Source: Armatimonadota bacterium
GTDB taxonomy: Bacteria; Armatimonadota; Zipacnadia; Zipacnadales; Zipacnadaceae
Length of the DNA stretch: 64,000 nucleotides
Direction of reading: 5' to 3'
Assembly (NCBI GenBank): GCA_036504235.1
Contig: DASXVN010000076.1
Span: 4,395 to 68,394, forward strand
Shown: positions 2,849-63,556 of the stretch, one piece after another
How the letters are laid out: each line of letters starts with the position of its first letter
Numbering within the stretch: position 1 is the first letter of the stretch
Program-made: the position numbers and the translations under genes
Notes under the pieces: generated by a model
Told to the model about the DNA's origin: nothing
The model's input: the letters and a program-made list of their open reading frames with translations, nothing else
Database searches by the model: none

Positions 2849-2916
2849 GGTTGTCTCCTTGTCGGGCGGACTGGTGCGGGTGACCATCGCCGCGCGGACG
2901 CGACGAAAGCCGCCCC

Positions 2917-4368
2917 CTACGGCGTCAGACTCAGCGCCCGCCACTTCTTCCCGTCGTAGAACATCGGCCCCGGCTGGTGATCGGCGGTGTTGATCCCGCT
3001 GTCTACGGCCAGGTCGCCGAGCTTCGGATTGGGGAGCTTGGTCACGTCGCAGGGCGACAGATTCAGCAGCGCGGGCAGGCCGCCGGAGCCCTGATAGGTG
3101 CGGGTGACGCCGCCGTCCTCCAGGGCGCGCACCACGTTGCCGCTGTCCTCGCCCTTGACCACCAAGTCCTCGCGGCGGGCCACGGTGAACTCGTTGCCAC
3201 TCCCGCCCGCCTCCAGCACCACGGACTTGCCGCGCGGGTAGGAGGCCTCAAAGTCGCCCTTCGCGTTCTTGGTGAACAGCGTCGGGTAGTTGTCCAGAAT
3301 CTCCAGCTTGCTGTCGCGCAGGGGCGACTCGAATCGAACCATGCGGTAGTTGTCCGCGCCGGGAGCGTACTTCACGTAGATCCCGTCGTAGATGACCAGC
3401 CCCAGCCCGCTGACCTCCCACAAGCGCCCCGCCCCGCCCGGCTCGTAGGAGATCGGCTCGGCGGAACCGGACACCCACTCACCGGTGTGCACGCGCACAT
3501 TGTCCACCAGCCCCCGGGCCAGCAGGCAGTGCTCGGCGCGCTCGCCCTCGATGCGCACGCCCTCGATAGACACTGCGCCCACGCGCCCCCCGCCGTGCGT
3601 GCCGTCCAGCAGAATCCCGGTCAGGCCGGTGGCCGAGAAATAGCCGCCGTAGATCGCCAGGTCGCTGGTGGAGGGACCGCAGACCCACAGGTCCACGCAC
3701 TTGCCCCCGCCCCAGGCGGCCCAGGTGCAGCCGTAGAACTTGAACTCGGTGTTGGAGCAGCCGGCGGTCAGCTCGTGGTAGGGGCTTTTAACCTTCCAGT
3801 AGTTCACGGGGGCGATGATGAAGCCGACCCCATCCTTGGCCTTCTGGATGAAGTAGCAGTTGTACCAGCGACATACCTCGGAGGCGAGGCAGTAGACGCC
3901 GGCCACGCTGAAGGACCCGTCCACCATCACGTTGGTGAAGAACCCGTTGCAGCCGCCGTTGCCGGTCTCGCGGGCCAGGAGCAGGCCGATGTTGGCAGTA
4001 TCCGAGACGATCTTCAGGTCGCGCATGGTGACATAGGTGCTGTCGGTCAGGTCCACCACCGGCTGGTCCTTCATCTTGCCGACGAGGGTGGTATTGAGCA
4101 TCCCCGAGCCGGTAAGCGTGATGAAATCGCCGGAATGGGGGTACTTAGCGTCGCGCGGCCGCGTGTTGCGCCCGGTCAGGTCGAGGGTCTTGTCGAGGAC
4201 ATAATTGCCCGGCGGCAAAACCACCTCGCCCCCACCTTCCGGCAAAGCGTCCACCGCGGCCTGGAGATTAGGAAAGTCAGCAGCGTTGACCCGCGCCGGC
4301 TTGGCGTCAGCCGCCCAGGCGAGGGTCGGGAGAAGCAGGAGCAGCAAAGCAACGTGCATGGTGCGCAT
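2917..4368 (-). CDS. Secreted right-handed beta-helix protein (pectate-lyase superfamily-like)
   Basis: N-terminal signal peptide MRTMHVALLLLLLPTLAWA and a pectate_lyase_3-like N-terminal motif (VVLPPGNYVLDKTLDL). GAGGTG RBS. Followed by a Gly-rich repetitive beta-helix region. Confidence 0.55.
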   Translation of the reverse strand: MRTMHVALLLLLLPTLAWAADAKPARVNAADFPNLQAAVDALPEGGGEVVLPPGNYVLDKTLDLTGRNTRPRDAKYPHSGDFITLTGSGMLNTTLVGKMKDQPVVDLTDSTYVTMRDLKIVSDTANIGLLLARETGNGGCNGFFTNVMVDGSFSVAGVYCLASEVCRWYNCYFIQKAKDGVGFIIAPVNYWKVKSPYHELTAGCSNTEFKFYGCTWAAWGGGKCVDLWVCGPSTSDLAIYGGYFSATGLTGILLDGTHGGGRVGAVSIEGVRIEGERAEHCLLARGLVDNVRVHTGEWVSGSAEPISYEPGGAGRLWEVSGLGLVIYDGIYVKYAPGADNYRMVRFESPLRDSKLEILDNYPTLFTKNAKGDFEASYPRGKSVVLEAGGSGNEFTVARREDLVVKGEDSGNVVRALEDGGVTRTYQGSGGLPALLNLSPCDVTKLPNPKLGDLAVDSGINTADHQPGPMFYDGKKWRALSLTP

Positions 4369-10542: not shown

Positions 10543-10550
10543 GGCAACTC

Positions 10551-15158: not shown

Positions 15159-15225
15159 AGATGATTGGCTAACTGGGACCATTTCCCGGAACCCCCGCCC
15201 AGTACGGGTCGTTTCCCGTAGGGGC

Positions 15226-15340
15226 GGAATTTCGGCGTCTCCGCCGAATCTCCGCCCGCGGCTAGCGGCAGTTCTCGGCATGCGCGGGCGGAGATTGCCC
15301 GGCAGACCGGGCAAATTCCGCCCCTACAACGGCACCGGCA
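15226..15340. repeat. REP pair (BIME-like): two inverted REP palindromes beginning GTAGGGGCGG
   Basis: GTAGGGGCGGAATTTCGGCGTCTCCGCCGAATCTCCGCCCGCG paired with its inverted partner ...CGCGGGCGGAGATTGCCCGGCAGACCGGGCAAATTCCGCCCCTAC. Same family as the REPs flanking the RAYT gene at 58020. Confidence 0.6.
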
Positions 15341-22642: not shown

Positions 22643-22852
22643 CTGTAGGGCTGGGGCTACGTCCCTCGCCGGCCGTTTGCCGTTGTCGTTCGCCGTTCTC
22701 CCCCTCTCCCAAGGTCCGCCGCGGGAGAGGGGGCCGGGGGGTGAGGTGAAACTGGCGGCGCGCCTCCGCCTTCCGCTCGGGCGCGGGCGGCGGGTGTAAC
22801 CGCCGCCCCTCCGGGGAAACGGCCGGCGGGGGACGTAGCCCCCGCCCTACAG
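22643..22852. repeat. MITE-like composite repeat with 23-nt terminal inverted repeats (CTGTAGGGCTGGGGCTACGTCCC / GGGACGTAGCCCCCGCCCTACAG)
   Basis: The inverted termini begin with GTAGGG. The interior carries GCCGTT tracts and a CCCCCTCTCCC-AAGGTCCGCCGC-GGGAGAGGGGG hairpin followed by GCCGGGGGGTGAGGTGAAACTGG, near-identical to the 47891-47950 copy. Confidence 0.55.
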
Positions 22853-48083: not shown

Positions 48084-48138
48084 ATGTTGGCACCCGTGCC
48101 CCCGGGGCCCGTGGTTTCCTTGAGGAGAGTGCTGCGCC

Positions 48139-48678: not shown

Positions 48679-48689
48679 CCGCGCCAGTC

Positions 48690-49080
48690 GTCCCCCCCTC
48701 TTCCGGAGGGGCCGCACGAGCAAAGCGAGGCCGGCCCTGCCGTTGCCTTGGCCGTTCGTAGGGCGGGGATTACGCCTGCGAAGCTCGCTCCGCGAGCTTC
48801 CCGCCCTGAGCCTATCGAAGGGTCTCCCGCCGGCCGTTAGCCGTTGCCTTTGCCTTGCCGTCAGCCCCTCCCGCTCCGGGAGGGGTGCCCAAGGCGAAGC
48901 CGAGGGCGGGGTGGGCCACCCGTCAGCGAGCGGGCGCGTTGCTCGGCTCCGCTCCGCAGAACGCGCCCCTACGCAGAAACGGCCCGGCCGTTGCCCGTTT
49001 GCCGTAGCCGTCAAGCCCCTCCCTTTAGGGAGGGGTGCCCGGAGGGCGGGGTAGGGCCGTCTGCCGTTCCCCCTTCCGCC
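48690..49080. repeat. Mosaic GC-rich intergenic repeat cluster
   Basis: Carries the 42-nt box CCGGAGGGGCCGCACGAGC(AA/GC)AGCGAGGCCGGCCCTGCCGTT, GTAGGGCGGGG..., GCCGTT tracts, and two CCCTCCC-loop-GGGAGGGGTGCCC..GGGCGGGGT(A/G)GGGCC hairpins. Confidence 0.6.
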
Positions 49081-49085
49081 TCCCC

Positions 49086-49128
49086 CCAAAAAAAGAGGCC
49101 CCGACCGAAGTCGGGGCCTCTTTTGTGT
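49086..49128. terminator. Bidirectional rho-independent terminator
   Basis: AAAAAAAGAGGCCCCGACCGAAGTCGGGGCCTCTTTTGTGTT: 11-bp stem flanked by an A-run and a T-run, between convergent cobO and the SLH-porin gene. Confidence 0.65.
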
Positions 49129-49155
49129 TGCTTGGGTACTGCAGTCGGCTCTTGC

Positions 49156-50994: not shown

Positions 50995-51448
50995 TTGGGT
51001 TATTAACCCTCCTTTTGGATGGTCGTCGAGGAGACGCGAGGTTGGCTCACAACTCGGCTTGCCCAAGCGTCCCTCCGGAGCGAACAGACCAGCATTGGAG
51101 GGCTCAAGAGTGTCCATGTTTCCTCTCATGCCCTGGCTGCGAACGGTCTGCGCTACTCCGCCCTCGTCCATTGACCTCTGATACCCTGGCCTGGAGGTCC
51201 CTCCCTTCTTGGGCCTGGTGTTTGGATATCAGCATGGACAAGCGCTCGACATACGGGGCATAAGCCCCGCTTACGGCGGGTTAACGATACTATTTTAGCC
51301 GCCGCAAGTCAAGGTAGTTCGACACCTGAGCTTCCGAAAGGTTCGCCTTCTCCAGCCTTTTCTCCGGGAATTTCCCCGGCCCCTTGAGGACCGTGCTTCC
51401 TCCCTAGCGACCCCCGCACTAGCAGCAGTTTCCAAACTGTCGCTGCTG

Positions 51449-51812
51449 TTTGTAGGGGTGGGCTTTGCGGTCCGCCGCCATGTCCACCCAGCGTTGCCTT
51501 CCTCTCCCTCTCCCAAAGTGGGAGAGGGGGCCGGGGGTGAGGAAGCGCCGTTGCCGTTGTAGGGGCGGCTTTTGCCCGTCTCGGGCAATTGCCGCCCGTT
51601 TGCTGACTGAAATCAAACCGGCGCGGAAGGATCTACCCCTGCCGAACGGGCGGCAATTCGGCGCTGACGCCGAAAAGCCGCCCCTACGGTGAAAGGGCCG
51701 TCGCCGTTCCCGGAGGGGCCGCACGAGCGCAGCGAGGCCGGCCCTGCCGTTAGCCGTTGCCCCTCCCGCTCCGGGAGGGGTGCCCGGAGGGCGGGGTGGG
51801 CCGCCGTAAGTT
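51449..51812. repeat. Mosaic repeat cluster including a REP inverted pair (BIME-like)
   Basis: GTAGGGGTGGGC...; CCTCTCCCTCTCCC-AAAGTG-GGAGAGGGGG + CCGGGGGTGAGG; REP GTAGGGGCGGCTTTTGCCCGTCTCGGGCAATTGCCGCCCG with inverted partner at 51646-51686; 42-nt box; CCCTCCCG-CTCC-GGGAGGG hairpin. Confidence 0.6.
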
Positions 51813-51902
51813 TATTCTCCTCACCACCGGAACCTTTCTTATCTACTATTGTTGGTAGTAGGCAGAGCACCGAACTTTCCCAGACTCCGCGAGGTGAGAA
51901 AG

Positions 51903-52478
51903 ATGAGAGCAACCCTTTATTCCTTACTAACCCTGTCCGTCCTGGCCACCGTACTGGCGGGCTGCGGCGGCTCCAGCAGCACCCCCGCCCTGCCTGCCGA
52001 ACCGGCCCGCAGCGCCCAGGTAATCACCAAGAGTCCGGGACTGGACAGTCTCGCCGCCGCCCTAACCGCGGCGGGCAAGCCCCTACCCGACTTCCTGCAG
52101 AGCGGCACGGTAACCACCGCCCCGCCTCCCGGCTCCGTGAGCACGCAGTCCTACATGACCGTGCTGACCCTCAACCGCTGGCTGTACAACCAGAGCGTGA
52201 CCCGCGGCCGCACCCAGTGGTATGAGGTCAGCCTGACCAGCCTCAACAACCTGACGGACGCCTACGCCCTGGTCCGCTCCGGCGACGCCGACCTCTACGT
52301 CTTCTCGCCGATCCGCCCCAACGACCCCAACAGCTCCCTGCAACTGGTCGGCTACAGCGTGGGCACGGGCAACGAGCAGGTCGGCTCCTGGGTAGCCTCC
52401 GCCTGGGGCGGCACCGGCCGCTACATCATCGGAGTCAACGGCTTCCAGGCCAGCACCTTCGACCTCAAAGTCTGGTAG
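51903..52478 (+). CDS. Lipoprotein with pre-peptidase C-terminal (PPC)-like domain
   Basis: Lipobox VLAGC after signal peptide; GAGGTG RBS. ...QWYEVSLTSLNNLTDAYALVRSGDADLYVF... matches the PPC pattern. Confidence 0.55.
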   Translation: MRATLYSLLTLSVLATVLAGCGGSSSTPALPAEPARSAQVITKSPGLDSLAAALTAAGKPLPDFLQSGTVTTAPPPGSVSTQSYMTVLTLNRWLYNQSVTRGRTQWYEVSLTSLNNLTDAYALVRSGDADLYVFSPIRPNDPNSSLQLVGYSVGTGNEQVGSWVASAWGGTGRYIIGVNGFQASTFDLKVW

Positions 52479-52504
52479 CCGCGTCGATATGCGCACAGAC
52501 AGCG

Positions 52505-52536
52505 AGAGAGCCGAGCTAGTTAGCTCGGCTCTCTTC
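52505..52536 (+). terminator. Perfect 14-bp palindrome AGAGAGCCGAGCTA-GT-TAGCTCGGCTCTCT downstream of the lipoprotein gene
   Basis: Begins 27 nt after the stop codon; weak T-rich tail. Confidence 0.4.
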
Positions 52537-52559
52537 GTGTCAGCCGGTTTGCGGGTGAG

Positions 52560-53012
52560 CCGGCCGTCTCCCGTAGGGGCGCGTTTTGGCCCGTCCGCGG
52601 GACAACACACGCCCCTACGCGGAAGAGTCCCCGCCGTTGTCTTTGCCGTTCCCCCCTCTCCCCAGTCTGCGCGGGGAGAGGGGCCGGGGGTGAGGCCAGG
52701 CTGCCGCTGGGCGTGTCTCTTCGCCGTTCGTCATTGCCGTTCCCCCCCTCTCCCAAGCCGCAGGCGCGGGAGAGTGGGCCGGGGGCCTGTCCGCCGTAGC
52801 TTCAGCGAAGGCGGATGAGGTAAGACTGGCGTCCGGCCTCCCCCTTCCGCCCCTACGCGGAGACCTCCCCGCCGTTCGCCTCTGCCGTTACTCCCCTCTC
52901 CTGCCAGGAGAGGGGCCGGGGGTGAGGCCGGGCTACCGCTGGGCCCGTCTTCCCCAGGTCCCGCGCGGGGAGAGGGGGCCGGGGGCCTGTCCGCCGTAGC
53001 TTCAGCGAAGGC
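52560..53012. repeat. Mosaic repeat cluster (REP + four CCCCTCTCC/GGAGAGGGG hairpin copies, two carrying a nested insertion)
   Basis: REP GTAGGGGCGCGTTTTGGCCCGTCCGCGGGACAACACACGCCCCTAC; hairpin copies at ~52656, 52745, 52896, 52965. Copies 2 and 4 have CCTGTCCGCCGTAGCTTCAGCGAAGGCGGA inserted between GCCGGGGG and TGAGG. Confidence 0.6.
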
Positions 53013-53020
53013 GGATGAGG

Positions 53021-53596
53021 CTAGTACGCCTCGCAATACGGCTCGTAGTACGCCTGCGCATGCTGACACGCCGGACACACCTTGGGCGGCGTGGCGCCCT
53101 CCATCACCATGCCGCAGTTGCGGCAGTGCCACTTGATCGGCGCGGGGCGCGAGAAGACCTCGCCCGCCGCCACGCGACCGGCCAGTACGTTATAGCGATG
53201 CTCGTGGAAGGCCTCTACCTTAGCGATCTGGTCGAAGGACACGAACACCGCGCCGAAGCCCTCCTCCTTGGCGGTCGCGGCGAAGCCGGGATACAGCGTG
53301 CCCCACTCCAGCAGCTCGCCCGCGGCCGCGGCCTGCAGGTTCTCCAGAGTCCCGGCGATCACGCCGCCCGGGTAGGTAGCGGTGATCTCCACGTCGCCGC
53401 CCTCGAGGTGCTTGAAGAAGACCTGCGCGTGCTCCTTCTCATTGTCCGCGGTCTCGGCAAAGATCGCGGAGATCTGCTCATACCCCTCCTTCCGCGCCAC
53501 GCTGGAGAAGTAGGTGTAGCGGTTGCGGGCCTGCGACTCGCCGGCAAAGGCGGCCAGCAGGTTCTTCTCGGTCTGTGAGCCTTTCAGACTGGACAT
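53021..53596 (-). CDS. rbr: Rubrerythrin
   Basis: Ferritin-like diiron motifs (E..H pairs) plus a C-terminal rubredoxin-like CxxC...CxxC (CRNCG...CPAC). Confidence 0.85.
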   Translation of the reverse strand: MSSLKGSQTEKNLLAAFAGESQARNRYTYFSSVARKEGYEQISAIFAETADNEKEHAQVFFKHLEGGDVEITATYPGGVIAGTLENLQAAAAGELLEWGTLYPGFAATAKEEGFGAVFVSFDQIAKVEAFHEHRYNVLAGRVAAGEVFSRPAPIKWHCRNCGMVMEGATPPKVCPACQHAQAYYEPYCEAY

Positions 53597-53632
53597 GGAT
53601 GACTTCCTCCCTAGGATGTTCCGTTGTTTCCC

Positions 53633-53676
53633 GTAGGGGCGGCTTTCGCAGCTTCCGAGCTGCGCTTGCCGCCCGC
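53633..53676. repeat. Single REP palindrome (GTAGGGGCGGCTTTCGCAGCTTCCGAGCTGCGCTTGCCGCCCGC)
   Basis: Begins with GTAGGGGCGG and is internally palindromic; lies between rubrerythrin and the zinc-ribbon gene. Confidence 0.5.
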
Positions 53677-53691
53677 TGGCTAAACGCGCCT

Positions 53692-53949
53692 CTACTCGGC
53701 CGGCTCGGCGGGCGGTTCAGCTTCCGGCGCGGCGGCCGCGGCCTCGGCTTCGGCCTGCATCTCCGCGAGCTTGGCCTCGTCCACCCAGATGCGGCCGTGG
53801 CCACTGCAGAACGAGCAGCGCGCCGCGGACGGCTGGCCCTTGCGCCCCTGACCGGCGGCCATCTTGCAGACCTCACAACTCCGACCGTGGTCCACCTTAC
53901 AGATCTTGGCTCCGTGGCAGTGCATGCATTCGACTAGCTTATCGGCCAT
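53692..53949 (-). CDS. Small zinc-ribbon / DnaJ-CR-like Cys-rich protein
   Basis: 85 aa with CMHCHG...C..C and CSFCSGHG (CxxCxGxG) motifs. AAAGGAG RBS at canonical spacing. Acidic Ala/Glu/Pro C-terminal tail. Confidence 0.5.
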   Translation of the reverse strand: MADKLVECMHCHGAKICKVDHGRSCEVCKMAAGQGRKGQPSAARCSFCSGHGRIWVDEAKLAEMQAEAEAAAAAPEAEPPAEPAE

Positions 53950-54048
53950 GATGCTTGGCTCCTTTCAGAAGACGGAGGCCGCTGGACGCCGAGGCGCGCC
54001 GCTCCCGTCTGGGCTGCGATTATCCCCCTCGCGGGGGCCTTCTCCCGT

Positions 54049-54846
54049 CTACGGCTTGGCGAACACTTCCGCCAGAAAGTCCCGCATCGCCTGCCCGGAG
54101 CGCCGGGCGGCGATCTCGTTATAGGCGACCGGCGAGCCGGCGGCCGGCACGTTGGCGGGGTTGGTGAAGCCGTGTACCGCCCCGCCGTAGTAGATCATTT
54201 CCCAGTCCACCTTGCCCTGCCGCAAGGCCTCCTGCAGCGCGGTAATCGTCTCCGGCTTGATCGTCGGATCATCCGCCCCGTGCAGAATCAGCAGGTGCGC
54301 CTTGATTCGCGCCAGGTCCGCCGCCTCCGGCACGGTCAGCCCCCCGTGGAAGGTCACCACGCCCCCCAGCACCGCCCCGCTGTAAGCCAACTCCAGCGCG
54401 CAGGTGCCGCCGAAACAGAAGCCGATCGCCGCAACGCGCTGCCGGTCCACCCGCGGGTTCTTCACCAGTTCAGCCAGCGCCGCCGCCGCCCGCTCCCGCA
54501 TCAACTGGCGCCCGCCGGTGTCCCAGGCGCCCCGGAACTGCCCGGCCAGCTTCCCGGCCTCAGCGGGATCAGTGGCCACCAGACCGTCGCCATACATGTC
54601 CGCTACCAGGGCTACATAGCCCAGTTCCGCGAGCTGTCGCGCCCGCTCGCGCGGGAAGTCGTTGACCCCCCACCACTCCGGGAAGACCAGTACTCCCGGC
54701 CGGGGTCCGGCCCCCGCGTCGTCATCGGCGAGGTAGCCCTGGCACACCGTGTCGCCCGCCTGATAGGTCACCGTCTCCGTCTTGATCGCCGCCTGGGTCG
54801 CCATGCTTAGCCCCAGCAGCAACAGCACCACGACTGCCGTTTGCAT
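54049..54846 (-). CDS. Secreted dienelactone hydrolase family protein
   Basis: Signal peptide; GFCFGG nucleophile motif; HGADD; C-terminal H in VHGF. ATG at 54846 with AAGGAGG RBS. Confidence 0.75.
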   Translation of the reverse strand: MQTAVVVLLLLGLSMATQAAIKTETVTYQAGDTVCQGYLADDDAGAGPRPGVLVFPEWWGVNDFPRERARQLAELGYVALVADMYGDGLVATDPAEAGKLAGQFRGAWDTGGRQLMRERAAAALAELVKNPRVDRQRVAAIGFCFGGTCALELAYSGAVLGGVVTFHGGLTVPEAADLARIKAHLLILHGADDPTIKPETITALQEALRQGKVDWEMIYYGGAVHGFTNPANVPAAGSPVAYNEIAARRSGQAMRDFLAEVFAKP

Positions 54847-54884
54847 CCGGGCTCGCCTCCTTATATATAGGAGGGACCCCTCGG

Positions 54885-56780
54885 CTAGGGCTGCCGCCAC
54901 CAGGCCTCGGCCAACTCCGGCGCCGCCGCCTGGCTGTCGCCCAGCGTCGGCCAGGCGCGCAACCCGGGGGTCACCCTCCAGCGCGCCCCCTCGAGCGCGG
55001 TCGGCGAGAAGTCAGCGCCGGCCAGGGGCGTCACTGGCTCTGACGTTCCCCGCAGCCCTCCTAGTTCGACGCTCACGCCCTTGAGGCCCGCCAGCAGTTG
55101 CGCCAGCGCCCGGCCCGCGTCGCTAGCGGGGCGCTCCCCCTGGAAGCTGTCCAGGCAGGCGCGCAGCGTCCGCACCGCCGGCGCGGCCTGCCCCGGCGCG
55201 TACTCAATCCGGCCTACGACCGCCTGCCAGCGGAAGGCCCCCGCGCTCAGCGGCAGCGACCCGGTGGCGCAGAGGTACAGCCGCTCCCGCGCCTTGCCCT
55301 CCCGGACTCCGCTCACCCAGACCAGCGCCCCCTCGGCCTGCGTGTCCCCCTCCGGCAGCAGCTTGGCCACCGCGGCGCTGGGCTGCACGCTGACCACCTT
55401 GGCCTCGTGCAGCGTCTCGTCCGGCTGGGCCAGCAGGTACTCCACGTACTTCTCCGGGGTCCGCCGCTTGAGCACGGTCAGGTACGGCTCGCTGGAATCC
55501 TCCCGGTACGGAGTCCCCTCCGCCTGCCCCAGAGACACCAGTATCGGCGACAAATCTCGGAAAAACGGCGTGCTCGGCTGCTGCCAGGAGACCTCATAGT
55601 CCGCCGAGCGCAGCCGCAGGGCGATAGTCGGCTGGCCCGCAAAAGTAGTGACCGCCCCCCCGGCCTCCCAGCCCGCGGGCAGGCCCAGGGAAAGCTGCTT
55701 GTTGTTGTCCGTCCAGCGGGGCGCCTCCTCGGGGGCCACCGTCGCCGGCTCCCAACCAGGCGCCGCGGCCCGGCTGAGCTGCCCCGCCAGGCGCGGCGCC
55801 TGCTCTGCCCACTGCGCCGCCGGGGCGTAAAGGCCGGTCACCAGCGCCGTATCGCCCTGCCGCCAGACATACAGTACCGCCCGCACCGGCGCGGTCGCGC
55901 TCCCGGGCGTCGTCCGCCGGAAGATCGGCCCCGACACCCGCGCCGCCAGCACCTCTCCGGCCCCCAGGGGCCGAGTCGCCAGTATCTCCAGCGTCGTCCC
56001 CGTCGCGGCGGACCACAACGCCGGCAGCTTGGCCAGATCCACCTCGCCCGTCACCCGCACCGGCCACAGGAAGTACCCGCTCGGCTGCTGCGGGTCCCGC
56101 GCCTCCACCAGACCATCCTGGTTGCGGACCTCCCAGCCCGGCAGGGTCCGCAGCGTGAAGCCGTCCACCAGCGAGAGCCCCTCGGCGGTCGACGCGGGGA
56201 CAGTCGCCGGCGGGAGGGCCACCGGCGGTGTCACCGCGAAGCTCTCGGCCCCGGTAGGCGTGGGCGTCAGAGACAGACTGGTGCAGATCGCTTCCAGCCG
56301 TTGCCGCGCCGCCGCCTCAAAACCGGGCAGCCCCCGCACCGCCACGGCCACCCGCGTCTTCTCGTGAGTATAGGTAACAAAAGCCAGCAGCGGCTTAGCC
56401 TGGGTAGACACGTCCACATGCATCCAGCAGCCGGGCTGCCCGTCCGCGTCGCTGGCGGTCAGGTCGGCCAAGCGCACCGCCGCCTCGCTTAAGCCCAGGC
56501 TGTCGCGATACTCGACCGCCGCTTCCTCCGGGGTGGCCGCCGTCTCGCCCGACCAGACCTTGACCGTGACCTCGGTCCCCTGCGGCGAGAAGAGCCGCGC
56601 CTGATCGGAATGCCGCGGCGCGTCCAGCAGCCACCCCCCGGGAATCCGCAAACTAACGCCCCCCGCCGGCAGCCACACCGATTGCCAATCCGCCCCCGGC
56701 ACCGCCCCGGTAAGCTGGGCGGAGACCGGTCCCGCCGCCAGAAGCACACTGACCGCTAGCGCTGCGGCTATCCTCTTCAT
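54885..56780 (-). CDS. Secreted hypothetical protein (631 aa)
   Basis: Signal peptide MKRIAAALAVSVLLAAGPVSA; no recognisable catalytic motif; coherent long ORF with no competing frame. Confidence 0.5.
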   Translation of the reverse strand: MKRIAAALAVSVLLAAGPVSAQLTGAVPGADWQSVWLPAGGVSLRIPGGWLLDAPRHSDQARLFSPQGTEVTVKVWSGETAATPEEAAVEYRDSLGLSEAAVRLADLTASDADGQPGCWMHVDVSTQAKPLLAFVTYTHEKTRVAVAVRGLPGFEAAARQRLEAICTSLSLTPTPTGAESFAVTPPVALPPATVPASTAEGLSLVDGFTLRTLPGWEVRNQDGLVEARDPQQPSGYFLWPVRVTGEVDLAKLPALWSAATGTTLEILATRPLGAGEVLAARVSGPIFRRTTPGSATAPVRAVLYVWRQGDTALVTGLYAPAAQWAEQAPRLAGQLSRAAAPGWEPATVAPEEAPRWTDNNKQLSLGLPAGWEAGGAVTTFAGQPTIALRLRSADYEVSWQQPSTPFFRDLSPILVSLGQAEGTPYREDSSEPYLTVLKRRTPEKYVEYLLAQPDETLHEAKVVSVQPSAAVAKLLPEGDTQAEGALVWVSGVREGKARERLYLCATGSLPLSAGAFRWQAVVGRIEYAPGQAAPAVRTLRACLDSFQGERPASDAGRALAQLLAGLKGVSVELGGLRGTSEPVTPLAGADFSPTALEGARWRVTPGLRAWPTLGDSQAAAPELAEAWWRQP

Positions 56781-56923
56781 AGTGTCTACCTAATTCCCGT
56801 TTCCCCGCGGAACTCCTGCCCCAGCGGGTCCCCCGCCGGGAGGATTGCCGCCTCCCCAGGGCGAACCAGTTCCCAATCGTGGTCGTTTCCGGCCGCACCG
56901 CCACTATCTGAGGAGGAATCCCT

Positions 56924-57919
56924 ATGTCCTTTGACGTCGTAACCTTCGGCGAAGCCATGGTCCGCCTGACTCCGCCGCTTTTCCAGCGTATCGAGCAGGC
57001 CAGCGAGCTGTGGATGCACGTCGGCGGCGGCGAGTTCAACGTCGCCATCGGCGCTTCCCGCCTGGGCCTGACCTCGGCCTGGGTCTCCGCCCTGCCCGTC
57101 AACCCCCTGGGCCGTCTGGTCCGCAACAAGGCCCGCGAGCACGGGGTCAACACCGATTACGTCGCCTGGCACGAGAAGGAGCGCTGCGGCCTGTACTTCC
57201 TGGAGATGGGCACCGCCCCGCGCCCCAACGCCGTCCTCTACGACCGCGCCAACGCGGCGGTCTCCAACCTCCAGCCCGGCGAGCTAGACTGGGACGGCGT
57301 CTTCGCGGGCGCGAAGGCCTTCCACGTCTCCGGCATCACCCCCGCCCTCTCGGCAAGCTGCTGCGAGGTCACCATGGAGGCTCTGCAGAAGGCCAAGCAG
57401 CACGGACTGTTCGTGTCCTACGACCTCAACTACCGCAAGAACCTCTGGTCCACCGCCGAGGCCGCCGCCGCCCAGGAGCCGATGATGGACTACGTGGACC
57501 TGCTGATCACCACCGAGGACGACGCGAACGAGGTCTTCGGCCACCAGGGCGCCCCGGCCTCGGTCTGCCGGGAACTCAAGGAGCGCTTCGGCTTCACCGC
57601 CGCGGCCATGACCCTGCGCCGCATCGACACCGTCCTGCGCCACGGCTGGACCTCGATTATCTACGCCGACAAGCTCTATGAGGACGTCACCTACGAGCTA
57701 GAGAACGTGGACCGCGTAGGCGGCGGCGACAGCTTCTCGGCCGGCTGCCTCTACGGCTGGCTGACCACGCAAGACTGGCAGCAAGCAGTAGCCTGGGGCG
57801 ACGCCTTCAGCGCCCTCAAGCACACCAACCTGGGCGACGTAAACTTCGCCACCCGCGAAGAAACCGAGCGTCTCATGAAGTCCTACGGCGACAAGCTCCG
57901 CTTCAAGATTCAGAGGTAG
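56924..57919 (+). CDS. PfkB-family carbohydrate kinase (KdgK-like)
   Basis: N-terminal GG motif region (HVGGGEFNVAIG) and C-terminal DRVGGGDSFSAGCLYG anion-hole/ATP motif. Confidence 0.8.
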   Translation: MSFDVVTFGEAMVRLTPPLFQRIEQASELWMHVGGGEFNVAIGASRLGLTSAWVSALPVNPLGRLVRNKAREHGVNTDYVAWHEKERCGLYFLEMGTAPRPNAVLYDRANAAVSNLQPGELDWDGVFAGAKAFHVSGITPALSASCCEVTMEALQKAKQHGLFVSYDLNYRKNLWSTAEAAAAQEPMMDYVDLLITTEDDANEVFGHQGAPASVCRELKERFGFTAAAMTLRRIDTVLRHGWTSIIYADKLYEDVTYELENVDRVGGGDSFSAGCLYGWLTTQDWQQAVAWGDAFSALKHTNLGDVNFATREETERLMKSYGDKLRFKIQR

Positions 57920-57939
57920 ATAGACGCGGCCGTTTCCGC

Positions 57940-57986
57940 GTAGGGGCGGAAGTTGCCCGGTCCGCCGGGCAATCTCCGCCCGCGCC
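57940..57986. repeat. REP palindrome immediately upstream of the RAYT gene
   Basis: GTAGGGGCGGAAGTTGCCCGG-TCC-GCCGGGCAATCTCCGCCCGCG. Confidence 0.6.
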
Positions 57987-58019
57987 CGCCACTAACACTC
58001 TCTTCTTCACAACCTTGAC

Positions 58020-58529
58020 ATGGACCGCACCCCTACCGACAATCCGGTCGTTCGCCTGCCGCAACGACATGACTGCCGCCCGCGGCTTGATTCGTACGTC
58101 TACGGGCCGTCTGGCTATGTCACGCACGTTGCCATCGGTTCTCACCGAAAACGCCCGGTGCTGACTACCAATCCCCAGGTCGCTGGCCTGATCTGCGCGT
58201 GCCTGGAGGCTGCGGCCTTCGCCCAGGGTGGGCGGCTCTATTGCTACTGTCTGATGCCCGATCATCTGCACTTTCTGGTCGCCATTGACCCGGGCGGGAG
58301 CAACGTCGCCACGATCGTTCGCTCTTTTGGCATCCGGGTGACGATGCGGACCAAGCACCTCTGCGCTCCGCCGCTTTTCCAACGCAGCTTCTACGATTCC
58401 GTAGTCCGGGAGGACGACGATCTACCGGAGCGCTGCACATACGTGGTGAATAATCCGGTGCGCCAGGAGCTGGTGGCGGATTGGCGCGACTATCCTTACA
58501 CGTGGCTCTCTCCAGAGTTGGGAAGCTAA
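58020..58529 (+). CDS. REP-associated tyrosine transposase (RAYT; IS200/IS605-like HuH Y1 transposase family)
   Basis: HuH motif in ...YCYCLMPDHLHFLVAI..., catalytic-Tyr region ...CTYVVNNPVRQELV...; about 165 aa, typical RAYT size. Flanked on both sides by REP palindromes beginning GTAG. Confidence 0.75.
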   Translation: MDRTPTDNPVVRLPQRHDCRPRLDSYVYGPSGYVTHVAIGSHRKRPVLTTNPQVAGLICACLEAAAFAQGGRLYCYCLMPDHLHFLVAIDPGGSNVATIVRSFGIRVTMRTKHLCAPPLFQRSFYDSVVREDDDLPERCTYVVNNPVRQELVADWRDYPYTWLSPELGS

Positions 58530-58545
58530 CGCTGTTGCCCTTGTA

Positions 58546-58950
58546 GGGAGACGACCGCTTCATGCGCGAACCCCCTGCCGTTGCCCTTGTAGGGGCGGAA
58601 GTTGCCCGGTCCGCCGGGTAATCTCCGCCCGCGCCCGCCACCAACCGCCTCTTCCTCACCCCCTGACGCCCAACGCGACATCGCCTCGTCGAATCAGCGA
58701 ACCACCCCCAACCTAGCGACCGCCGCGGGCGGAGATTCGGCGCCGACGCCGAACTTCCGCCCCTACGGGAGACGACCGCTTCATGCGCGAACCCCTGCCG
58801 TTGCCCTTGTAGGGGCGGAAGTTTTCGCGTCCTAGCGAAAATCTCCGCCCGCGCCCGCCACCAACCGCCTCTTCCTCACCACCTGACGCCCAACGCGACA
58901 CCGCCTCGTCGAATCAGCGAACCACCCCCAACCCTAGCGACCGCCACCGT
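58546..58950. repeat. Tandem direct duplication (~220-nt unit x2), each unit containing a REP, separated by an inverted REP
   Basis: GTAGGGGCGG at 58589 and 58809. Unit 1 inner stem TTGCCCGG/CCGGGTAA versus unit 2 TTTTCGCG/CGCGAAAA (compensatory changes preserve the hairpin). Inverted REP GCGGGCGGAGATTCGGCGCCGACGCCGAACTTCCGCCCCTAC at 58727-58768. Confidence 0.6.
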
Positions 58951-59100
58951 TCTGCTGCTAGTGTTCTGGCACGGACTGGGAATGTACCTCGCGCACCTGC
59001 ATGCCGGATAGGACGCCCCCTCCCGCCGAACCTCTCCCGGCGCCCCGGCGTCGTTCCTCCTCAGACGTCGCACCCTTGCCGCCCCTGGGAGGAACCCCGT

Positions 59101-59670
59101 ATGCGCCCGAAGGCCCGTTGGTATCGAGGAGCCCTCACTGCCGCCGGAGCCCTGATCGCCACCAGCGCCTGGGCGCAAGGCCCTCCCGGGCCGCCCCGCC
59201 GGTCCTTCTGGCTGGACCCTGTCCACCTCCTCGGCCTCTCCGCGCCCCTGGTCATGGCCGTGGCCCTGGTCATCGGCCTGACCATCTTCTTCGGCCTACG
59301 CCGTCATGGCCTGGCCTATGACTCGCCGGCCCGCCAGGGTCGCCGCCGCTGGCATATCGCCTTCGGCCTGACCGGGGGTAGCCTCGCGATCGCCCACGCC
59401 CTCGGCCGCTACCACCAGTTTGGCGACAAAATTGACTTCACCCAGGCGGCGCCCAACCTGGCCCTGGCCTCGGTGCTGCTGCTAGCTATCGCCGGCATCT
59501 TGCGCGCCTCCCTGCCCTCTCGCCACGCCACCGCCCTGAGCGTCTTGGCCTGGTGCCACCGGCTGGGGGTGGTGGGCATGCTGGGTTTCGCCGCCTGGCA
59601 CGCGACCGGCGCGGTCCTCTTTCACCTCGCGCGGATGGCGAAGGCCGCCGCGACGCCCCCTCGCGGCTAG
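59101..59670 (+). CDS. Membrane protein of unknown function (signal peptide + 4 TM helices, conserved His residues)
   Basis: GGGAGGAA RBS 6 nt before ATG. Hydrophobic helices with His in HIAFGLTGGSLAIAH and WCHRLG...AWHATG. Confidence 0.45.
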   Translation: MRPKARWYRGALTAAGALIATSAWAQGPPGPPRRSFWLDPVHLLGLSAPLVMAVALVIGLTIFFGLRRHGLAYDSPARQGRRRWHIAFGLTGGSLAIAHALGRYHQFGDKIDFTQAAPNLALASVLLLAIAGILRASLPSRHATALSVLAWCHRLGVVGMLGFAAWHATGAVLFHLARMAKAAATPPRG

Positions 59671-60030
59671 TTTTTTTGGGTATTTTTTCTCCCCGAGAAG
59701 GAATCCCCCCGGACAGGGGGAATACCACCTGCGGCGCGGGTTACTACTCGCGCTTGACAACAGGTTTTGCACTCGGGGCATTGGCGCGCGCGAGCGCGTC
59801 GGGGCAATCTTCGCAGCTGGACAGAGGCGGACTCGGCTTTCTTTTCTGCTTGGGGGCAGACTAGAGCGTACCGGTCGGGTCAGCGTCGGTCCTCACCACA
59901 CTACTACCTCTCCCCTATCACACCAACGGTCTTGCCGTCCCTATCGGTCGTCCGCCAAGCGCGGCCACTCGGGCGAGATTCGCTAGGTCCCGCCAGTGGG
60001 CGCGGCTTGGCGCGTCCGCCTACGACCGAC

Positions 60031-60115
60031 TGTGGATAACTACGTGGATTCCGCGTGAATAAGCGGTATACGCGTGGTTCGTCACCTGTGGAAAACCACA
60101 CTTGGCTGTGGATAA
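60031..60115. promoter_or_regulatory. Cluster of DnaA boxes: two perfect TGTGGATAA 9-mers (60031-60039, 60107-60115) and one 8/9 match (60087-60095)
   Basis: Perfect matches to the DnaA-box consensus TTATCCACA (reverse orientation) in a ~70% GC background, 40-125 nt upstream of the oxidoreductase start. An AT-rich stretch lies at 59670-59700. Confidence 0.4.
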
Positions 60116-60155
60116 CTCGCCGTACCACCAGCATTTCAGGAGGATCAGTATCGCT

Positions 60156-61229
60156 ATGGCCACTCCTCGTATCGGCATCGTCGGCATCGGCACTTTCGGC
60201 ATCAATCACCTGCGCTGTTTCCGGCAGATGGGCTACACGGGCGACGCGGAATTGGTCGCCGCTTGCGATATGAACGCGGACCTGCTCGCCCTGCGCCAGC
60301 AGGAATTCAGCTTCACCCCTTACACCGACTATCACGAGATGCTGGAGAAGGAGAACCTGGACGGAATCACCGTGGTCACGCCCGACCCCTTCCACCGCGA
60401 GGTAGTCCTCGCCGCCGCCGCCGCCGGCGTCCACGTGATGAGCGAAAAGCCCCTCGACGTAACCGTAGAGGGCTGCCAAGAGATGACCGAGGCCTGCGCG
60501 CAGGCCGGCATCCTGCTGCAGGTGGACTTCCACAAGCGCTATGACGAGTACCATCTGGCTATGCGCGACAAGATCGCCGCCGGCGACCTCGGCCAAATCG
60601 AGTACGGCTACGCGCACATGGAGGACCGCATCGAGGTCCCCCGCGACTGGTTCCCCGGCTGGGCGGGCAAGTCGTCCCCGGCCTGGTTCCTGGGCATCCA
60701 CTTCTACGATCTGGCCCGCTTCCTGCTGGGAGCCAACGGGGTCTCCGTCTGGGCTACCGGCAATCGTGGCCGCCTGCGGAGCCTCGGCGTGGACGCCTGG
60801 GATTCCGTCTGCGCCAAGGTCCTCTTCGACAACGGCGCCACGGTCAGCTTCGACACCTCCTGGATTCTCCCGGACGGTTTCGAGGCCATCGTCAACCAGG
60901 GCATCCGCCTGGTCGGCGCCAAGGGCATGCTCGAATGCGACAGCCAGGACCGCGGCACGATGACCTGCTGCGCCGACGATCAGCCCATGATGCAGACCCA
61001 CAACAAGAGCTTCCTGCGCCAGGTGACGGACAAGTACGGGCGCGAGCTCTGGGAGGGCTACGGCATGACCAGCATCGCCGACTTCGCCCTCAACGTAAAG
61101 CTGCTCCTGGAGGGCCGCACGCTAGCCGACCTCGGCGCGTACCCCAGCGGCGAAGACGGCATAGAGGCCACCAAAATAGCCGCCGGCGTACATAAGAGCC
61201 TGGAATCCGGCGGAATCGTACAGCTGTAG
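60156..61229 (+). CDS. Gfo/Idh/MocA-family NAD(P)-dependent oxidoreductase
   Basis: N-terminal Rossmann motif IGIVGIGTFGINH; C-terminal alpha/beta domain. ATG at 60156 preceded by AGGAGGA. Confidence 0.8.
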   Translation: MATPRIGIVGIGTFGINHLRCFRQMGYTGDAELVAACDMNADLLALRQQEFSFTPYTDYHEMLEKENLDGITVVTPDPFHREVVLAAAAAGVHVMSEKPLDVTVEGCQEMTEACAQAGILLQVDFHKRYDEYHLAMRDKIAAGDLGQIEYGYAHMEDRIEVPRDWFPGWAGKSSPAWFLGIHFYDLARFLLGANGVSVWATGNRGRLRSLGVDAWDSVCAKVLFDNGATVSFDTSWILPDGFEAIVNQGIRLVGAKGMLECDSQDRGTMTCCADDQPMMQTHNKSFLRQVTDKYGRELWEGYGMTSIADFALNVKLLLEGRTLADLGAYPSGEDGIEATKIAAGVHKSLESGGIVQL

Positions 61230-61245
61230 GGCGTTGTCCGCCGCC

Positions 61246-61274
61246 CGTCGGTGGCACCGGCGTCTCGCCGGTGC
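61246..61274 (+). terminator. Conserved hairpin element GTCGGTGGCACCGGCG-TCT-CGCCGGTGC (second copy of the 27646 element)
   Basis: Starts 17 nt after the oxidoreductase stop; 27/28 identical to the copy after the HEAT-repeat gene; no U-tract. Confidence 0.45.
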
Positions 61275-61275
61275 A

Positions 61276-61480
61276 TGCCGTTAGCATCTTGGCCGTTGCC
61301 GTTGCCGTTGCCGTTGTAGGGGCGCGTTTGGCGGCGTCTGCGCCGACACACACGCCCGCTCGCTGCCTGACAGTCAGCGTAAGGGGACAATCCCCGGCCG
61401 TTGCCGTTCGACTTTGCCGTTCCCTCTCCTATTTAGGGGAGGGCGGCGGCGTCCCCGCCGCCGGGGAGGGGTCCGCCGTT
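61276..61480. repeat. Mosaic repeat cluster (GCCGTT x4 tandem, REP, CCTCTCC-TATTTA-GGGGAGGG hairpin)
   Basis: GCCGTTGCCGTTGCCGTTGCCGTT followed by GTAGGGGCGCGTTTGGCGGCGTCTGCGCCGACACACACGCCC, then the hairpin and CGGCGGCGTCCCCGCCGCCG palindrome. Confidence 0.6.
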
Positions 61481-61556
61481 GCCGCACCCGAACGTTTTCG
61501 CTCGCGACTCGCTCCGGCGACTCGCGTTGACTAACACAAAAGGGAGGTGAACAATT

Positions 61557-61976
61557 TTGCGGAGTATTCACTTGCGGGTGGCTGTGGGAGTGGTTGGCGC
61601 CTTGTTGGCGCTGGGCGCGACGTTGGCCGTGAGCTCTTTAGGTCAGGACAACGTACCGCTGATCTGGGATGGCCACCTGATCCTACGTATTCGCGTGGGC
61701 AGCGGCGGGCTGACGTCAGCGGAGCGAGCCTCAGAGATTCAGATGCGCCTGGAGGACCTCATGGCCGACCAGTTCGCCAATGAACGCGCCGACATAATCG
61801 GGCGCATCGCCGTGCACAAGTACGGCAAGGAGCTAACCATCGGCACCCCCGACCGTCTGCTCATGACCGTGACCCTGGCGGACGCGCGGGCCTGTAACTC
61901 GACCGTATTCTGGCTGGCCCAGTACTGGCGCGCCCGGATCATCGAGGCCATGATCATAGCCACGCGCACCGGCTAG
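61557..61976 (+). CDS. Small secreted protein of unknown function
   Basis: TTG start with AGGGAGGTG RBS at 7-nt spacing; signal peptide (VAVGVVGALLALGATLAVSS). Confidence 0.45.
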   Translation: MRSIHLRVAVGVVGALLALGATLAVSSLGQDNVPLIWDGHLILRIRVGSGGLTSAERASEIQMRLEDLMADQFANERADIIGRIAVHKYGKELTIGTPDRLLMTVTLADARACNSTVFWLAQYWRARIIEAMIIATRTG

Positions 61977-62080
61977 CGCTCGTCTCCCGAGAACCGCTTC
62001 ACCACACCGCTGCCCTATATCGCACTAATCGCCGCGCATATCCGCCGCACCCAACTCGGGATCGTACAGATCAAGCCAGG

Positions 62081-62660
62081 CCGGGGAGCACTTTCCCCGG
62101 CCTGCTTTGCGTTCGAAGGGCAGCCGCTAACCCTCCCGTAGGGGCGGAGCTTGCTCCGCCCGGCCGTTAGCCGTCGCCGTTGCCGTCGCCGTTTGTAGGG
62201 CGGGGACTCGTGCCCCGCCGTCGCTAGGCAGACGTAATCCGCCGGGGCACAGTCCTCGGCGCACTGTGCGAATGCCGTTGCCTTTCCCGGAGGGGCCGCA
62301 CGAGCGCAGCGAGGCCAGCCCTGCCGTTCGCCTTGGCCGTTTGTAGGGCGGGGCCTACGCGCCCCGCCGGCCGTTGCCTCTGCCCTTGCCCTTCTCCCCC
62401 TCTCCCAAGCCGAAGGCGCGGGAGAGGGGGCCGGGGGGTGAGGTTAAGACTGGCGTCCCGCCTCCCCCTTCCGCTTCGACGCGGGCGGAGCAAGCTCCGC
62501 CCCTACGGGGAAACGGCGCCGGCCATCCGCCGTTCCCCCCTCTCCCAAAGTGGGAGAGGGGCGGGGGTGAGGAAGCCGTTGCCGTTCCCCCCTCTCCTGC
62601 GGGCGCTCGTCGGCGAGCGCCACGGAGAGGGGCCGGGGGTGAGGCCCGGCGGTCACTGCC
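62081..62660. repeat. Large mosaic repeat cluster bounded by inverted REPs (GTAGGGGCGGAGCTTGCTCCGCCC at 62139 / inverse at 62483)
   Basis: Contains the hairpin CCGGGGAGCACTTTCCCCGG, GCCGTT/GCCGTC tracts, GTAGGGCGGGG-loop-CCCCGCC REPs (62196, 62343), the 42-nt box (62288-62330), and three CCCCTCTCC/GGAGAGGGG hairpin copies (62396, 62541, 62583). Confidence 0.6.
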
Positions 62661-63221: not shown

Positions 63222-63556
63222 AGCCTTGCCGTTGACGTTGCCCTCGCCGTTGCCGTTCGCCGTTTCCCCGGAGGGGCCGCACGAGCGCAGCGAGGCCGGC
63301 CCGGCCGTTGCCGTTCTCCCCCCTCTCCCAAGGTCCGCCGCGGGAGAGGGGGGCCGGGGGGGTGAGGTCAAACGTAACTCCCGCCTCCACCCCTCGCCCC
63401 AACCTCCGCCTCTGCCGTTCCCCCCTCTCCCCAGTCCGCGCGGGGAGAGGGGCCGGGGGTGAGGAGCCGTTGCCGTACGCCGTTGCCTTTGCCGTAAACC
63501 CCTCCCTTCAGGGAGGGGTGCCCGCAGGGCGGGGTAGGGCCGTTGCCGTTCCCCTA
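63222..63556. repeat. Mosaic repeat cluster
   Basis: GCCGTT tracts, the 42-nt box (63268-63309), two CCCCTCTCCC/GGGAGAGGGG hairpin copies (63320, 63421), and the CCCTCCC-TTCA-GGGAGGG hairpin. Confidence 0.6.

Follow-up and report, generated by a model that had tools for sequence, protein, structure and literature searches.

Among the closest described counterparts of the locus reported here is the E. coli REPtron Ec, in which a REP-associated tyrosine transposase (RAYT), TnpAREP/YafM (RAYT group 2, subclass 2.2), is paired with repetitive extragenic palindromic (REP) sequences. E. coli REPs have been shown experimentally to be long, with an irregular zone midway along the stem and an upper half that is merely structural (PMC8266576), and residues Q95, E100 and R104 of TnpAREP contact their GTAG (PMC8266576, PMC6006769). 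RAYTs are defined by the motifs NP(L/V)(R/K)xG and W94/Q95/E-D100/R104 (PMC2817692, PMC6006769), and double T.T mismatches, 'double-foot' REPs, head-out heterodimers, clusters and GTAG as a source of stop codons have all been described (PMC6006769, PMC3733652, PMC7709200), as has the direct-inverted-direct arrangement that Nunvar et al. named the 'basic BIME module' (bacterial interspersed mosaic element; PMC2817692). Armatimonadota are unmentioned in three published REP and RAYT surveys (PMC3733652, PMC5581495, PMC6006769). Here we analysed a 64-kb stretch of contig DASXVN010000076.1 from an Armatimonadota metagenome-assembled genome (MAG), referred to below as the window. The gene at 58020..58529 on its plus strand is very probably the RAYT/TnpAREP gene of a REPtron, present once in the window and embedded in its cognate REPs, which would extend the RAYT/REP partnership to Armatimonadota. 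The system is of a known type, a textbook REPtron in a little-studied phylum. An identical protein is already public as HEY3398620.1, named 'MAG TPA: transposase [Armatimonadota bacterium]' by NCBI and 'REP element-mobilizing transposase RayT' by JGI.

The RAYT gene, its flanking REPs and homologous loci

The gene encodes a TnpAREP-type Y1 HuH transposase of 169 aa and starts with ATG, the first possible start codon 3' of an in-frame TAA. The earlier note had read this open reading frame (ORF) as a RAYT from its HuH motif and a downstream Tyr region, and both features were borne out. MPDHLHFLV occupies residues 79-87, with the HuH histidines in H82-L83-H84 (58263-58271, plus strand), and the catalytic Tyr141 (58440-58442, plus strand) was identified by alignment to Y115 of E. 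coli TnpAREP (PDB 4ER8); the surrounding Tyr motif reads YVVNNP, and the NPVR motif spans N145-P-V-R148 (residues 145-148). The best profile was NCBIfam NF047646 (REP_Tyr_transpos; 73.9 bits, E=1.2e-20, model positions 19-145 of 146), compared with 12.6 bits (E=0.12, cut-off 55) for the IS200 model NF033573. In the PDB, 4ER8 was the sole sequence match, at ~18-20% identity, and its H59/H61/Y115 and Q95/E100/R104 align with H82/H84/Y141 and Q121/D126/R130 of the window protein, respectively.

The predicted structure gave the same answer. An AlphaFold (AF2) model with a mean predicted local distance difference test score (pLDDT) of 88.7 had 4ER8_A as its best Foldseek match (E=4.4e-9, template modelling score 0.63, root-mean-square deviation 2.6 Å), followed by the ISDra2, IS200 and IS608 transposases at E 2e-6 or worse. 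In an alignment of 25 homologues, the YCLMP-H-H and N-P-R motifs, including H82 and H84, were invariant, and Y141, Q121 and D126 were kept in at least 90% of the proteins. Pairwise dN/dS against six homologues was ~0.15-0.29 (about 0.2, with dS saturated), which points to purifying selection on the gene. Only one copy occurs in the window, clustering at 90% leaves the protein as sole member on a single contig, and no tnpB-like ORF adjoining it was found among the window ORFs. A phmmer search of 1.8 billion representatives returned 3,800 cluster representatives at E<=1e-3 and only 5 at E<=1e-30, which places the protein in a large superfamily, yet in a small divergent clade. GC content at third codon positions (GC3) is 0.72, compared with 0.81-0.92 in most neighbouring genes. 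A promoter scan gave one TTGACA-17-GACAAT match that overlaps the start codon and was judged uninformative.

REPs stand on both sides of the gene, as had been claimed, in an arrangement that is less simple than a pair of inverted repeats at its ends. Bit scores given here come from a covariance model trained on 18 REP copies, nine from the window and nine from other genomes. The upstream REP (type A; 57929..57984, GTAG at 57940, plus strand; 69.2 bits) consists of GCCGTT-TCCGC-GTAG and the hairpin GGGCGGA/AG/TTGCCCGG-TCCG-CCGGGCAA/TC/TCCGCCC, folds as single-stranded DNA with -21.5 kcal/mol (z=-2.9), and lies in a unit that begins 10 nt past the PfkB stop and ends 36 nt ahead of the RAYT ATG. 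At 60, 198 and 280 nt 3' of the RAYT stop follow a second type A REP (58577..58636, GTAG at 58589, plus strand; 66.8 bits), an inverted type B REP with upper stem CGGCG/CGCCG (58721..58778, hairpin 58727-58766, minus strand; 67 bits) and a type C REP with upper stem TTTTCGC/GCGAAAA (58797..58856, GTAG at 58809, plus strand; 63.3 bits). The REPs at 57940 and 58589 share one orientation and differ at 1 of 42 positions, and the 35-nt tail that follows 57940 recurs after 58589 and 58809. The inverted pair flanking the gene is therefore made up of 57940(+) and 58766(-); the type B copy forms one head-out heterodimer with 58589(+) and, across the gene, another with 57940(+).

Together, 58589, 58766 and 58809 form a BIME-like direct-inverted-direct module, of which 58589 is the first element. 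The module is built on a 221-nt tandem unit, and the type C REP opens a second, shortened copy of that unit (58797 to ~58945; 92% identity over 142 nt). Directly past the RAYT stop lies a further 45-nt segment, 'unit 0' (58531..58575, plus strand; 14.5 bits), in which 18 nt from the start of the 221-nt unit are fused to 29 nt from its end, at the junction of GTAGG and GAGAC. It lacks everything from the GTAG of the type A REP to the CTAC of the inverted REP and keeps one GTAG. This single instance could mark a past excision or a site left unfilled (empty), or alternatively a microhomology-mediated deletion.

The association of gene and REPs recurs elsewhere. Homologues were examined at seven loci, namely P0002 (L039, 68% identical to the window protein), P0004 (L040/L041, 64%), P0006 (L042, 50%), P0007 (L001/L002, 49%), P0008 (L043, 47%), P0012 (L003, 46%) and P0011 (L004, 45%). 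All seven have GTAGGGGCG[GA]-headed REPs within ~110 nt of both gene ends. Most have one coding-strand REP 24-110 nt upstream and an inverted REP just downstream, and in five of the seven (the exceptions being L004 and L039) the REPs around the gene are inverted with GTAG outward. With the window, gene and REPs are thus paired at eight loci despite differing neighbour genes. Long, mismatch-bearing REPs accompany the homologues at 50% identity or more, together with L043 (47%). Short palindromes of 9-10 bp are found at L001, L003 and L004 (45-49%), perfect in L001 and L004 and with one G.T pair in L003. The REP type co-varies with protein subclade, and the GTAGGGGCG head is constant across both types.

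One of these homologues, P0007 (HEY3397787.1; L001 5889-6371), is flanked by short perfect REPs (GTAGGGGCGGAGGTTCTGACCTCCGCCC). Its accession lies 833 numbers away from that of the window protein and it comes from the same IMG data set, so it most likely belongs to the source MAG, which would then hold at least two RAYT paralogues with different REPs. The short REPs at window positions 62138 and 62506, described below, may belong to P0007 or to another paralogue. P0012 (L003 7003-7440) has Cys at the catalytic Tyr position (CLCVVSNPV versus CTYVVNNPV), with inverted REPs still flanking the gene, and is either an inactivated RAYT or the product of a sequencing error.

Structure and dispersal of the REP family

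Each REP unit runs in the order GCCGTT, a spacer of 0-6 nt, GTAG, a 7-bp lower stem, a 2x2 mismatch zone, a 7-8-bp upper stem and a 3-6-nt loop, giving hairpins of 36-42 nt with an unpaired GTAG immediately 5' of the foot, in keeping with the 20-50 nt and the conserved GT[AG]G head expected of REPs. The first six pairs of the lower stem (GGGCGG/CCGCCC) never vary; the seventh is A-T in one subfamily and C-G in the other. The mismatch zone holds A.C and G.T (or T.T), or T.T and T.T, and six or more upper-stem variants occur (GCCCGG, CGGCG, TTTTCGC, GTCCG, CCCGCG and GCGGCA). As single-stranded DNA the REPs fold into 7 bp, a 2x2 loop and 7-8 bp (dG -15 to -21.5 kcal/mol, z -2.9 to -4.6). Across the 18 training copies, 96.5% of cells were paired versus 30-56% in slid controls, and 8 of 15 pairs showed compensatory change on both sides. 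The GTAG strand outscored the opposite strand by 35-40 bits in the covariance model.

The family is strongly enriched in the window. Exact GTAGGGGCGG occurs 13 times versus 0.29 +/- 0.61 expected, a count reached by none of 100 shuffles, and with up to one mismatch it occurs 29 times versus 11 +/- 3.4 expected. The covariance model found 17 full-length matches at E<0.01, eight of them outside the training set. About six short hairpins of GTAGGGCGGGG type (22645, 22850, 47817, 48758, 62195 and 62343) score poorly with the model and appear by eye as GTAG followed by GC hairpins. Depending on whether such variants are counted, the window holds 17-24 REPs, in 11 separate intergenic gaps spread over 60 kb; the earlier note's figure of more than 20 members holds only with the GTAGGGCGGGG variants included. 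The sites it had named carry GTAG-headed palindromes with the defining features of REPs (36-42-nt hairpins, extragenic placement and inverted doublets), with the qualification that 51646, 58727 and 62483 mark the low ends of minus-strand copies and that its list omitted 48972(-), 51452(+), 52856(-), the GGAG-headed 22812(-) and 2920(-).

All 24 listed copies were extragenic once ORF starts had been corrected via the positions of Pfam domains. The apparent overlaps between REPs and genes vanish because the gene at 21.9-22.5 kb is EF-P, the plus-strand ORF there being spurious, and because the DXS domain begins at ORF residue 57 and the CorA domain at residue 88. Within the window, gaps near the RAYT gene were more often occupied by REPs (9 of 12 versus 2 of 12, p=0.012), which is weak evidence because the repeats themselves create gaps. 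Across the whole window, Rfam gave no match at gathering thresholds, and tRNA and tmRNA scans found none.

Dispersal extends beyond the window, and the palindromes are more than one isolated local feature. Related REPs were present on a second contig (L001) that is most likely from the same MAG. The pattern GTAGGGGCGGMWKTT-N8-26-AATYKCCGCCC, which has eight matches in the window, was found in 1 of 185,579 species-representative genomes, the MAG JAAYIR01 (candidate division WS1), with 29 copies on 22 contigs, and in JGI metagenomes it gave 12 more matches spread over 11 contigs, of which several come from the same organism as JAAYIR01; both collections scanned lack the source genome of the window. 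Twenty of the 29 JAAYIR01 copies share one core. A JAAYIR01 REP is identical to window copy 51687(-) outside the loop and sits in a composite unit of ~250 nt with two other hairpins. JAAYIR01 and the source are no more than moderately related, two syntenic genes (window 9658-12023) encoding proteins 54% and 61% identical between the two genomes. NCBI places JAAYIR01 and the source MAG in different phylum-level groups. The sharing of a near-identical REP subfamily reflects either unusual conservation of REP and RAYT, or labels that hide a closer kinship, or horizontal movement.

Two WS1-type assemblies differ by one extra tandem REP-containing unit (L031 2100-2900 versus L018 700-1200), a copy-number polymorphism of a BIME-like array. 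From 17 JAAYIR01 copies the 5' boundary of the mobile unit was not definable, since other repeat modules make up the upstream flanks and conservation declines without a sharp edge. The JGI contig Ga0376481_000260 ends at window position 62343, inside a REP-rich gap, where the window continues for a further 1.7 kb. Since assembly breaks at these repeats, REP counts from MAGs are underestimates.

Proposed mechanism and alternative explanations

The mechanism proposed here is modelled on E. coli TnpAREP and on IS200/IS605 TnpA, and on the same basis the enzyme is presumed to be active, perhaps still mobilising REPs, and would have a cleavage site and a set of REP subfamilies of its own. The RAYT would bind the REP strand while it is single-stranded, for example at the replication fork, recognising GTAG in its unpaired 5' position together with the GGGCGG/CCGCCC foot, which does not vary, and the 2x2 mismatches, with the upper stem needing merely to be paired. 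His82 and His84 would hold a metal ion and Tyr141 would cut close to the hairpin and become joined to the strand through a 5'-phosphotyrosine link. Transfer of the strand could then lead to REPs and REP doublets being excised, copied or re-inserted, the outcome over time being the A/B head-out heterodimers, the BIME-like tandem module beside the gene and the dispersed extragenic copies.

Several observations weigh against assigning the locus to the REPtrons. The protein scores 22.8 bits (E=1e-4) against Pfam Y1_Tnp, just below the gathering cut-off of 23; this profile had been suggested as the check on the ORF, and the result is formally a near miss that the other evidence outweighs. The NF047646 score likewise falls just short of the curated cut-off of 80 bits. 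Phe120 occupies the position of the usual Trp94 (WQ to FQ), Glu150 replaces the Gly of NP(V/L)(R/K)xG, and the protein is without the C-terminal tail that in E. coli TnpAREP contacts GTAG. The REPs nearest the gene (57940 and 58589) are direct and not inverted, and local tandem duplication, with no need for transposition, could account for the near-identity of the three gene-proximal REPs and their tails. In the comparison of the two WS1-type assemblies, no clean single-REP insertion or presence-absence polymorphism was found. Finally, a genome-wide REP load is inferred for the source genome, of which the analysis covered the window and what is most likely one further contig.

The alternative that survives best, though improbable, is that the hairpins serve the host in regulation or structure (as terminators, mRNA stabilisers or protein binding sites) and owe their spread to duplication and selection, with the Y1 gene a bystander or serving another role. 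Consistent with this, many copies lie just past stop codons (the PfkB stop precedes 57940 by 21 nt, and a GTAG provides the stop at 2917), E. coli REPs have such roles (PMC8266576), and tandem duplication could account for the gene-proximal copies. By contrast, the pairing of gene and REPs at eight loci with differing neighbours, and the co-variation of REP type with protein subclade, count against it. The hairpins are followed by no T-run, terminator-like sites are no more frequent than in shuffles (one in 2.6 kb), and REPs occur in both orientations relative to flanking genes. The conservation is also strand-asymmetric (GTAG and the mismatch zone), as expected for recognition of a single strand and against a host-element origin. 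A host role and mobilisation by the RAYT are compatible with each other.

Slightly less probable again is a fossil system, in which the RAYT no longer works and the REPs are decaying relics. The HMM (hidden Markov model) scores below cut-off, the W94F exchange and the missing C-terminal tail could be read in this way, as could the many diverged or degenerate copies (for example 2920, 22645, 47817, 51452 and 52856) and the Cys at the catalytic Tyr of homologue P0012. However, the HuH motif and Tyr are intact and dN/dS is ~0.2, and near-identical copies persist (57940 and 58589 at the gene, and the core shared by 20 of 29 copies in the related MAG). Phe120 is common to three of the four closest homologues, the fourth having Leu, and is therefore a trait of the clade and not a sign of decay.

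Least likely of all is an autonomous IS200/IS605-type insertion sequence (IS), with the direct hairpins at 57940 and 58589 as the ends of a ~700-bp unit and the other hairpins as miniature derivatives: the two flanking hairpins, both on the coding strand and near-identical including their 35-nt tails, do have the geometry of IS200/IS605 ends, the GC3 of the gene is lower than that of most neighbours and the fold also matches IS200, IS608 and ISDra2 TnpA, but the RAYT HMM far outscores the IS200 HMM, the gene is single in the window and in its 90% cluster and has no tnpB, five of seven homologue loci have inverted REPs, and REPs vastly outnumber the gene. The locus is thus best read as a REPtron.

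Further repeats and comparison with described systems

Head-out REP pairs occur at five places in the window (15218/15327, 51559/51687, 58589/58766, 62138/62506 and 22645/22850). Upstream of the true DXS start, a head-out heterodimer (15206..15339) joins a type B REP (15218-15257, plus strand; 70.5 bits) and a type A REP (15286-15327, minus strand; 66 bits). A heterodimer of the second subfamily (CTTTT...AATTG) joins A2 (51559-51597, plus strand; 64 bits) and B2 (51648-51687, minus strand; 70.6 bits), in a region (51440..51699) that also holds a diverged REP (51452-51489, plus strand; 15 bits). At 62126..62518, the short perfect REPs GTAGGGGCGGAGCTTGCTCCGCCC stand head-out at 62138-62161 (plus strand; 23.1 bits) and 62483-62506 (minus strand; 35.2 bits), and between them lie further hairpin modules and a pair of GTAGGGCGGGG variants, at 62195-62219 and 62343-62368. 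The GTAGGGC(T/G)GGGGCTACGTCCC variants at 22645-22670 (plus strand) and 22825-22850 (minus strand), intergenic and 5' of EF-P, enclose a GGAG-headed REP (22782-22812, minus strand) and another hairpin module (31.6 bits in the region 22645..22850).

The remaining copies are single or diverged. A 'double-foot' REP at 52573..52618 carries both GTAG, 5', and CTAC, 3', on a single hairpin (27.7 and 20.9 bits). A single REP with upper stem GCAGCT/AGCTGC (53621..53680, plus strand; 60.4 bits) lies in the 95-nt spacer 5' of the rubrerythrin gene, and at 61292..61363 (plus strand; 33.9 bits) four tandem GCCGTT hexamers precede a REP (GTAGGGGCGCG...). Diverged REPs at 47817 (plus strand), 48758-48806 (plus strand) and 48932-48972 (minus strand; 26.3 bits for 48926-48984) flank the gene at 48124-48678, and another, with head GTAGGGGCGG (52810-52856, minus strand, in region 52803..52868; 16.1 bits, E=0.038), is the 3' part of the F5 repeat module. 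In a degenerate REP at 2872..2932 (minus strand; 29.4 bits), GTAG supplies the TAG stop (2917-2919) of the ORF at 2917-4368 (minus strand), as described for GTAG REPs in PMC3733652.

REPs share their gaps with other repeats. GCCGTT, often two to four times in an array with a 6-7-nt period, lies just 5' of nearly every hairpin module (47803-62586; 22672-22700), with arrays for example at 61292-61315, 62163-62193 and 47877-47889. Its density is 6.5/kb outside genes and 0.86/kb inside (7.5-fold), compared with 0.5-1.8/kb for control hexamers outside genes. Of the 51 extragenic copies, 44 lie on the plus strand across 15 kb, in convergent and divergent gaps alike; since GC skew shows no switch within the window, this bias could not be tied to a replication landmark here. 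GCCGTT also precedes GTAG in related genomes, and in L040 it lies in the REP loop.

Interspersed among the REPs are five or more further hairpin families that lack GTAG. One has the form CCCCCTCTCC-[variable loop or inner hairpin]-GGAGAGGGG(C)CGGGGGTGAGG, with all copies on the plus strand (51497-51540, 52645-52700, 52736-52790, 52884-52930, 62385-62440, 62529-62650, 47884-47940 and 22690-22745), and a module related to it adjoins a REP in the WS1 MAG. Four kinds of further module were seen in REP-rich gaps: CCCGGAGGGGCCGCACGAGCGCAGCGAGGCCrGCCC, CCCCTCCCGCTCCGGGAGGGGTGCCCGGAGGGCGGGGTrGG, CCCCTCCCCTATCTAGGGGAGGGCGGCG...CGCCGGGGAGGGG and a ~75-nt unit ending in a GTAG REP. They lie at 51706-51800, 62274-62322, 48690-48735, 49015-49055, 63510-63540, 47994-48052, 61416-61475, 52780-52856, 52985-53020 and 62440-62506. 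Repeat modules and REPs fill most of the intergenic DNA from 47.6 to 62.7 kb, and the assignment accounts both for these repeat-rich regions and for the assembly break at 62343, which is of value for annotation.

It is conceivable, though we consider it rather unlikely, that the GTAG REPs are one part of a larger composite repeat system in which GCCGTT is a cleavage or target site shared by RAYT paralogues, separate from the GTAG 'guide' and regenerated at each insertion. If true, this would explain the mosaic chaining of modules and the strand bias expected of single-strand transposition, and would make the targets of REP insertion readable by a rule, so far undefined for RAYTs. The exact motifs brought up nothing pertinent in a search of the literature. 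The REPtron itself is unsurprising to a specialist; the GCCGTT arrays and the interleaved hairpin families are worth following up.

Among described systems, the IS200/IS605 TnpA proteins (IS608, ISDra2 and IS200) have the same fold and Y1 HuH chemistry and likewise recognise sub-terminal single-stranded hairpins on one strand. They are nevertheless multi-copy mobile genes, often with tnpB, without GTAG-headed genome-wide repeats, and their IS200 HMM has no match to the window RAYT. Subclass 2.4/group 4 (Cyanobacteria, Bacteroidetes, Caldilineae and others) is also found in non-proteobacterial phyla and has long REPs with three G-C foot pairs. It shares 'double-foot' REPs (52573-52618 here) and a YIxNNP-like Tyr motif with the window (PMC6006769, PMC5581495). 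Compared by description, it differs in having NH[IFV]H instead of DHLH and REPs often inside the gene, where the window has none.

Agreement in key protein motifs is seen with group 3/subclass 2.5 (Pseudomonas, the Stenotrophomonas maltophilia REPtron Sm and the Marinomonas REPtron Mb), which shares DH[LF]H, Asp at the E100 position, Y(I/V)xxNP, extra N-terminal residues and the lack of a long C-terminal tail (PMC6006769, PMC8266576). By the table of PMC6006769, DHLH and Asp126 would suit subclass 2.5/2.7, a placement at the level of motifs. Genomes of this group hold several RAYT paralogues, each with its own REPs, like the two paralogues of the source MAG, and the short palindromes of L001, L003 and L004 resemble group 3 REPs. 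The likeness is one of motifs: the putative cognate REPs of the window gene are long and interrupted whereas those of group 3 are short and perfect, and WQ is FQ in the window protein.

The E. coli REPtron Ec is the best PDB match by sequence and fold, with HuH and Tyr positions in agreement. Its REPs are likewise long, with a 5' GTAG, an irregular conserved mid-stem zone and a solely structural upper stem (PMC8266576), and it too has inverted pairs of different REP types (Y/Z2 there, A/B here) and gene-side BIME-like tandem modules (PMC2817692). The window RAYT differs from E. coli TnpAREP in having DHLH for EHMH, Asp for Glu at the equivalent of position 100 and no C-terminal extension of ~20-30 residues contacting the last GTAG bases, and its REPs differ in their symmetric 2x2 loop (A.C/G.T or T.T/T.T) and in the conserved GCCGTT 0-6 nt 5' of GTAG. 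For understanding how RAYTs read their substrates, two features of the system are of use: a REP subfamily that is near-identical between genomes whose syntenic proteins are 54-61% identical, and a REP architecture that switches between long interrupted and short near-perfect forms with the GTAGGGGCG head fixed. The latter switch parallels the contrast between groups 2 and 3 (PMC8266576), but here it takes place within one protein clade.

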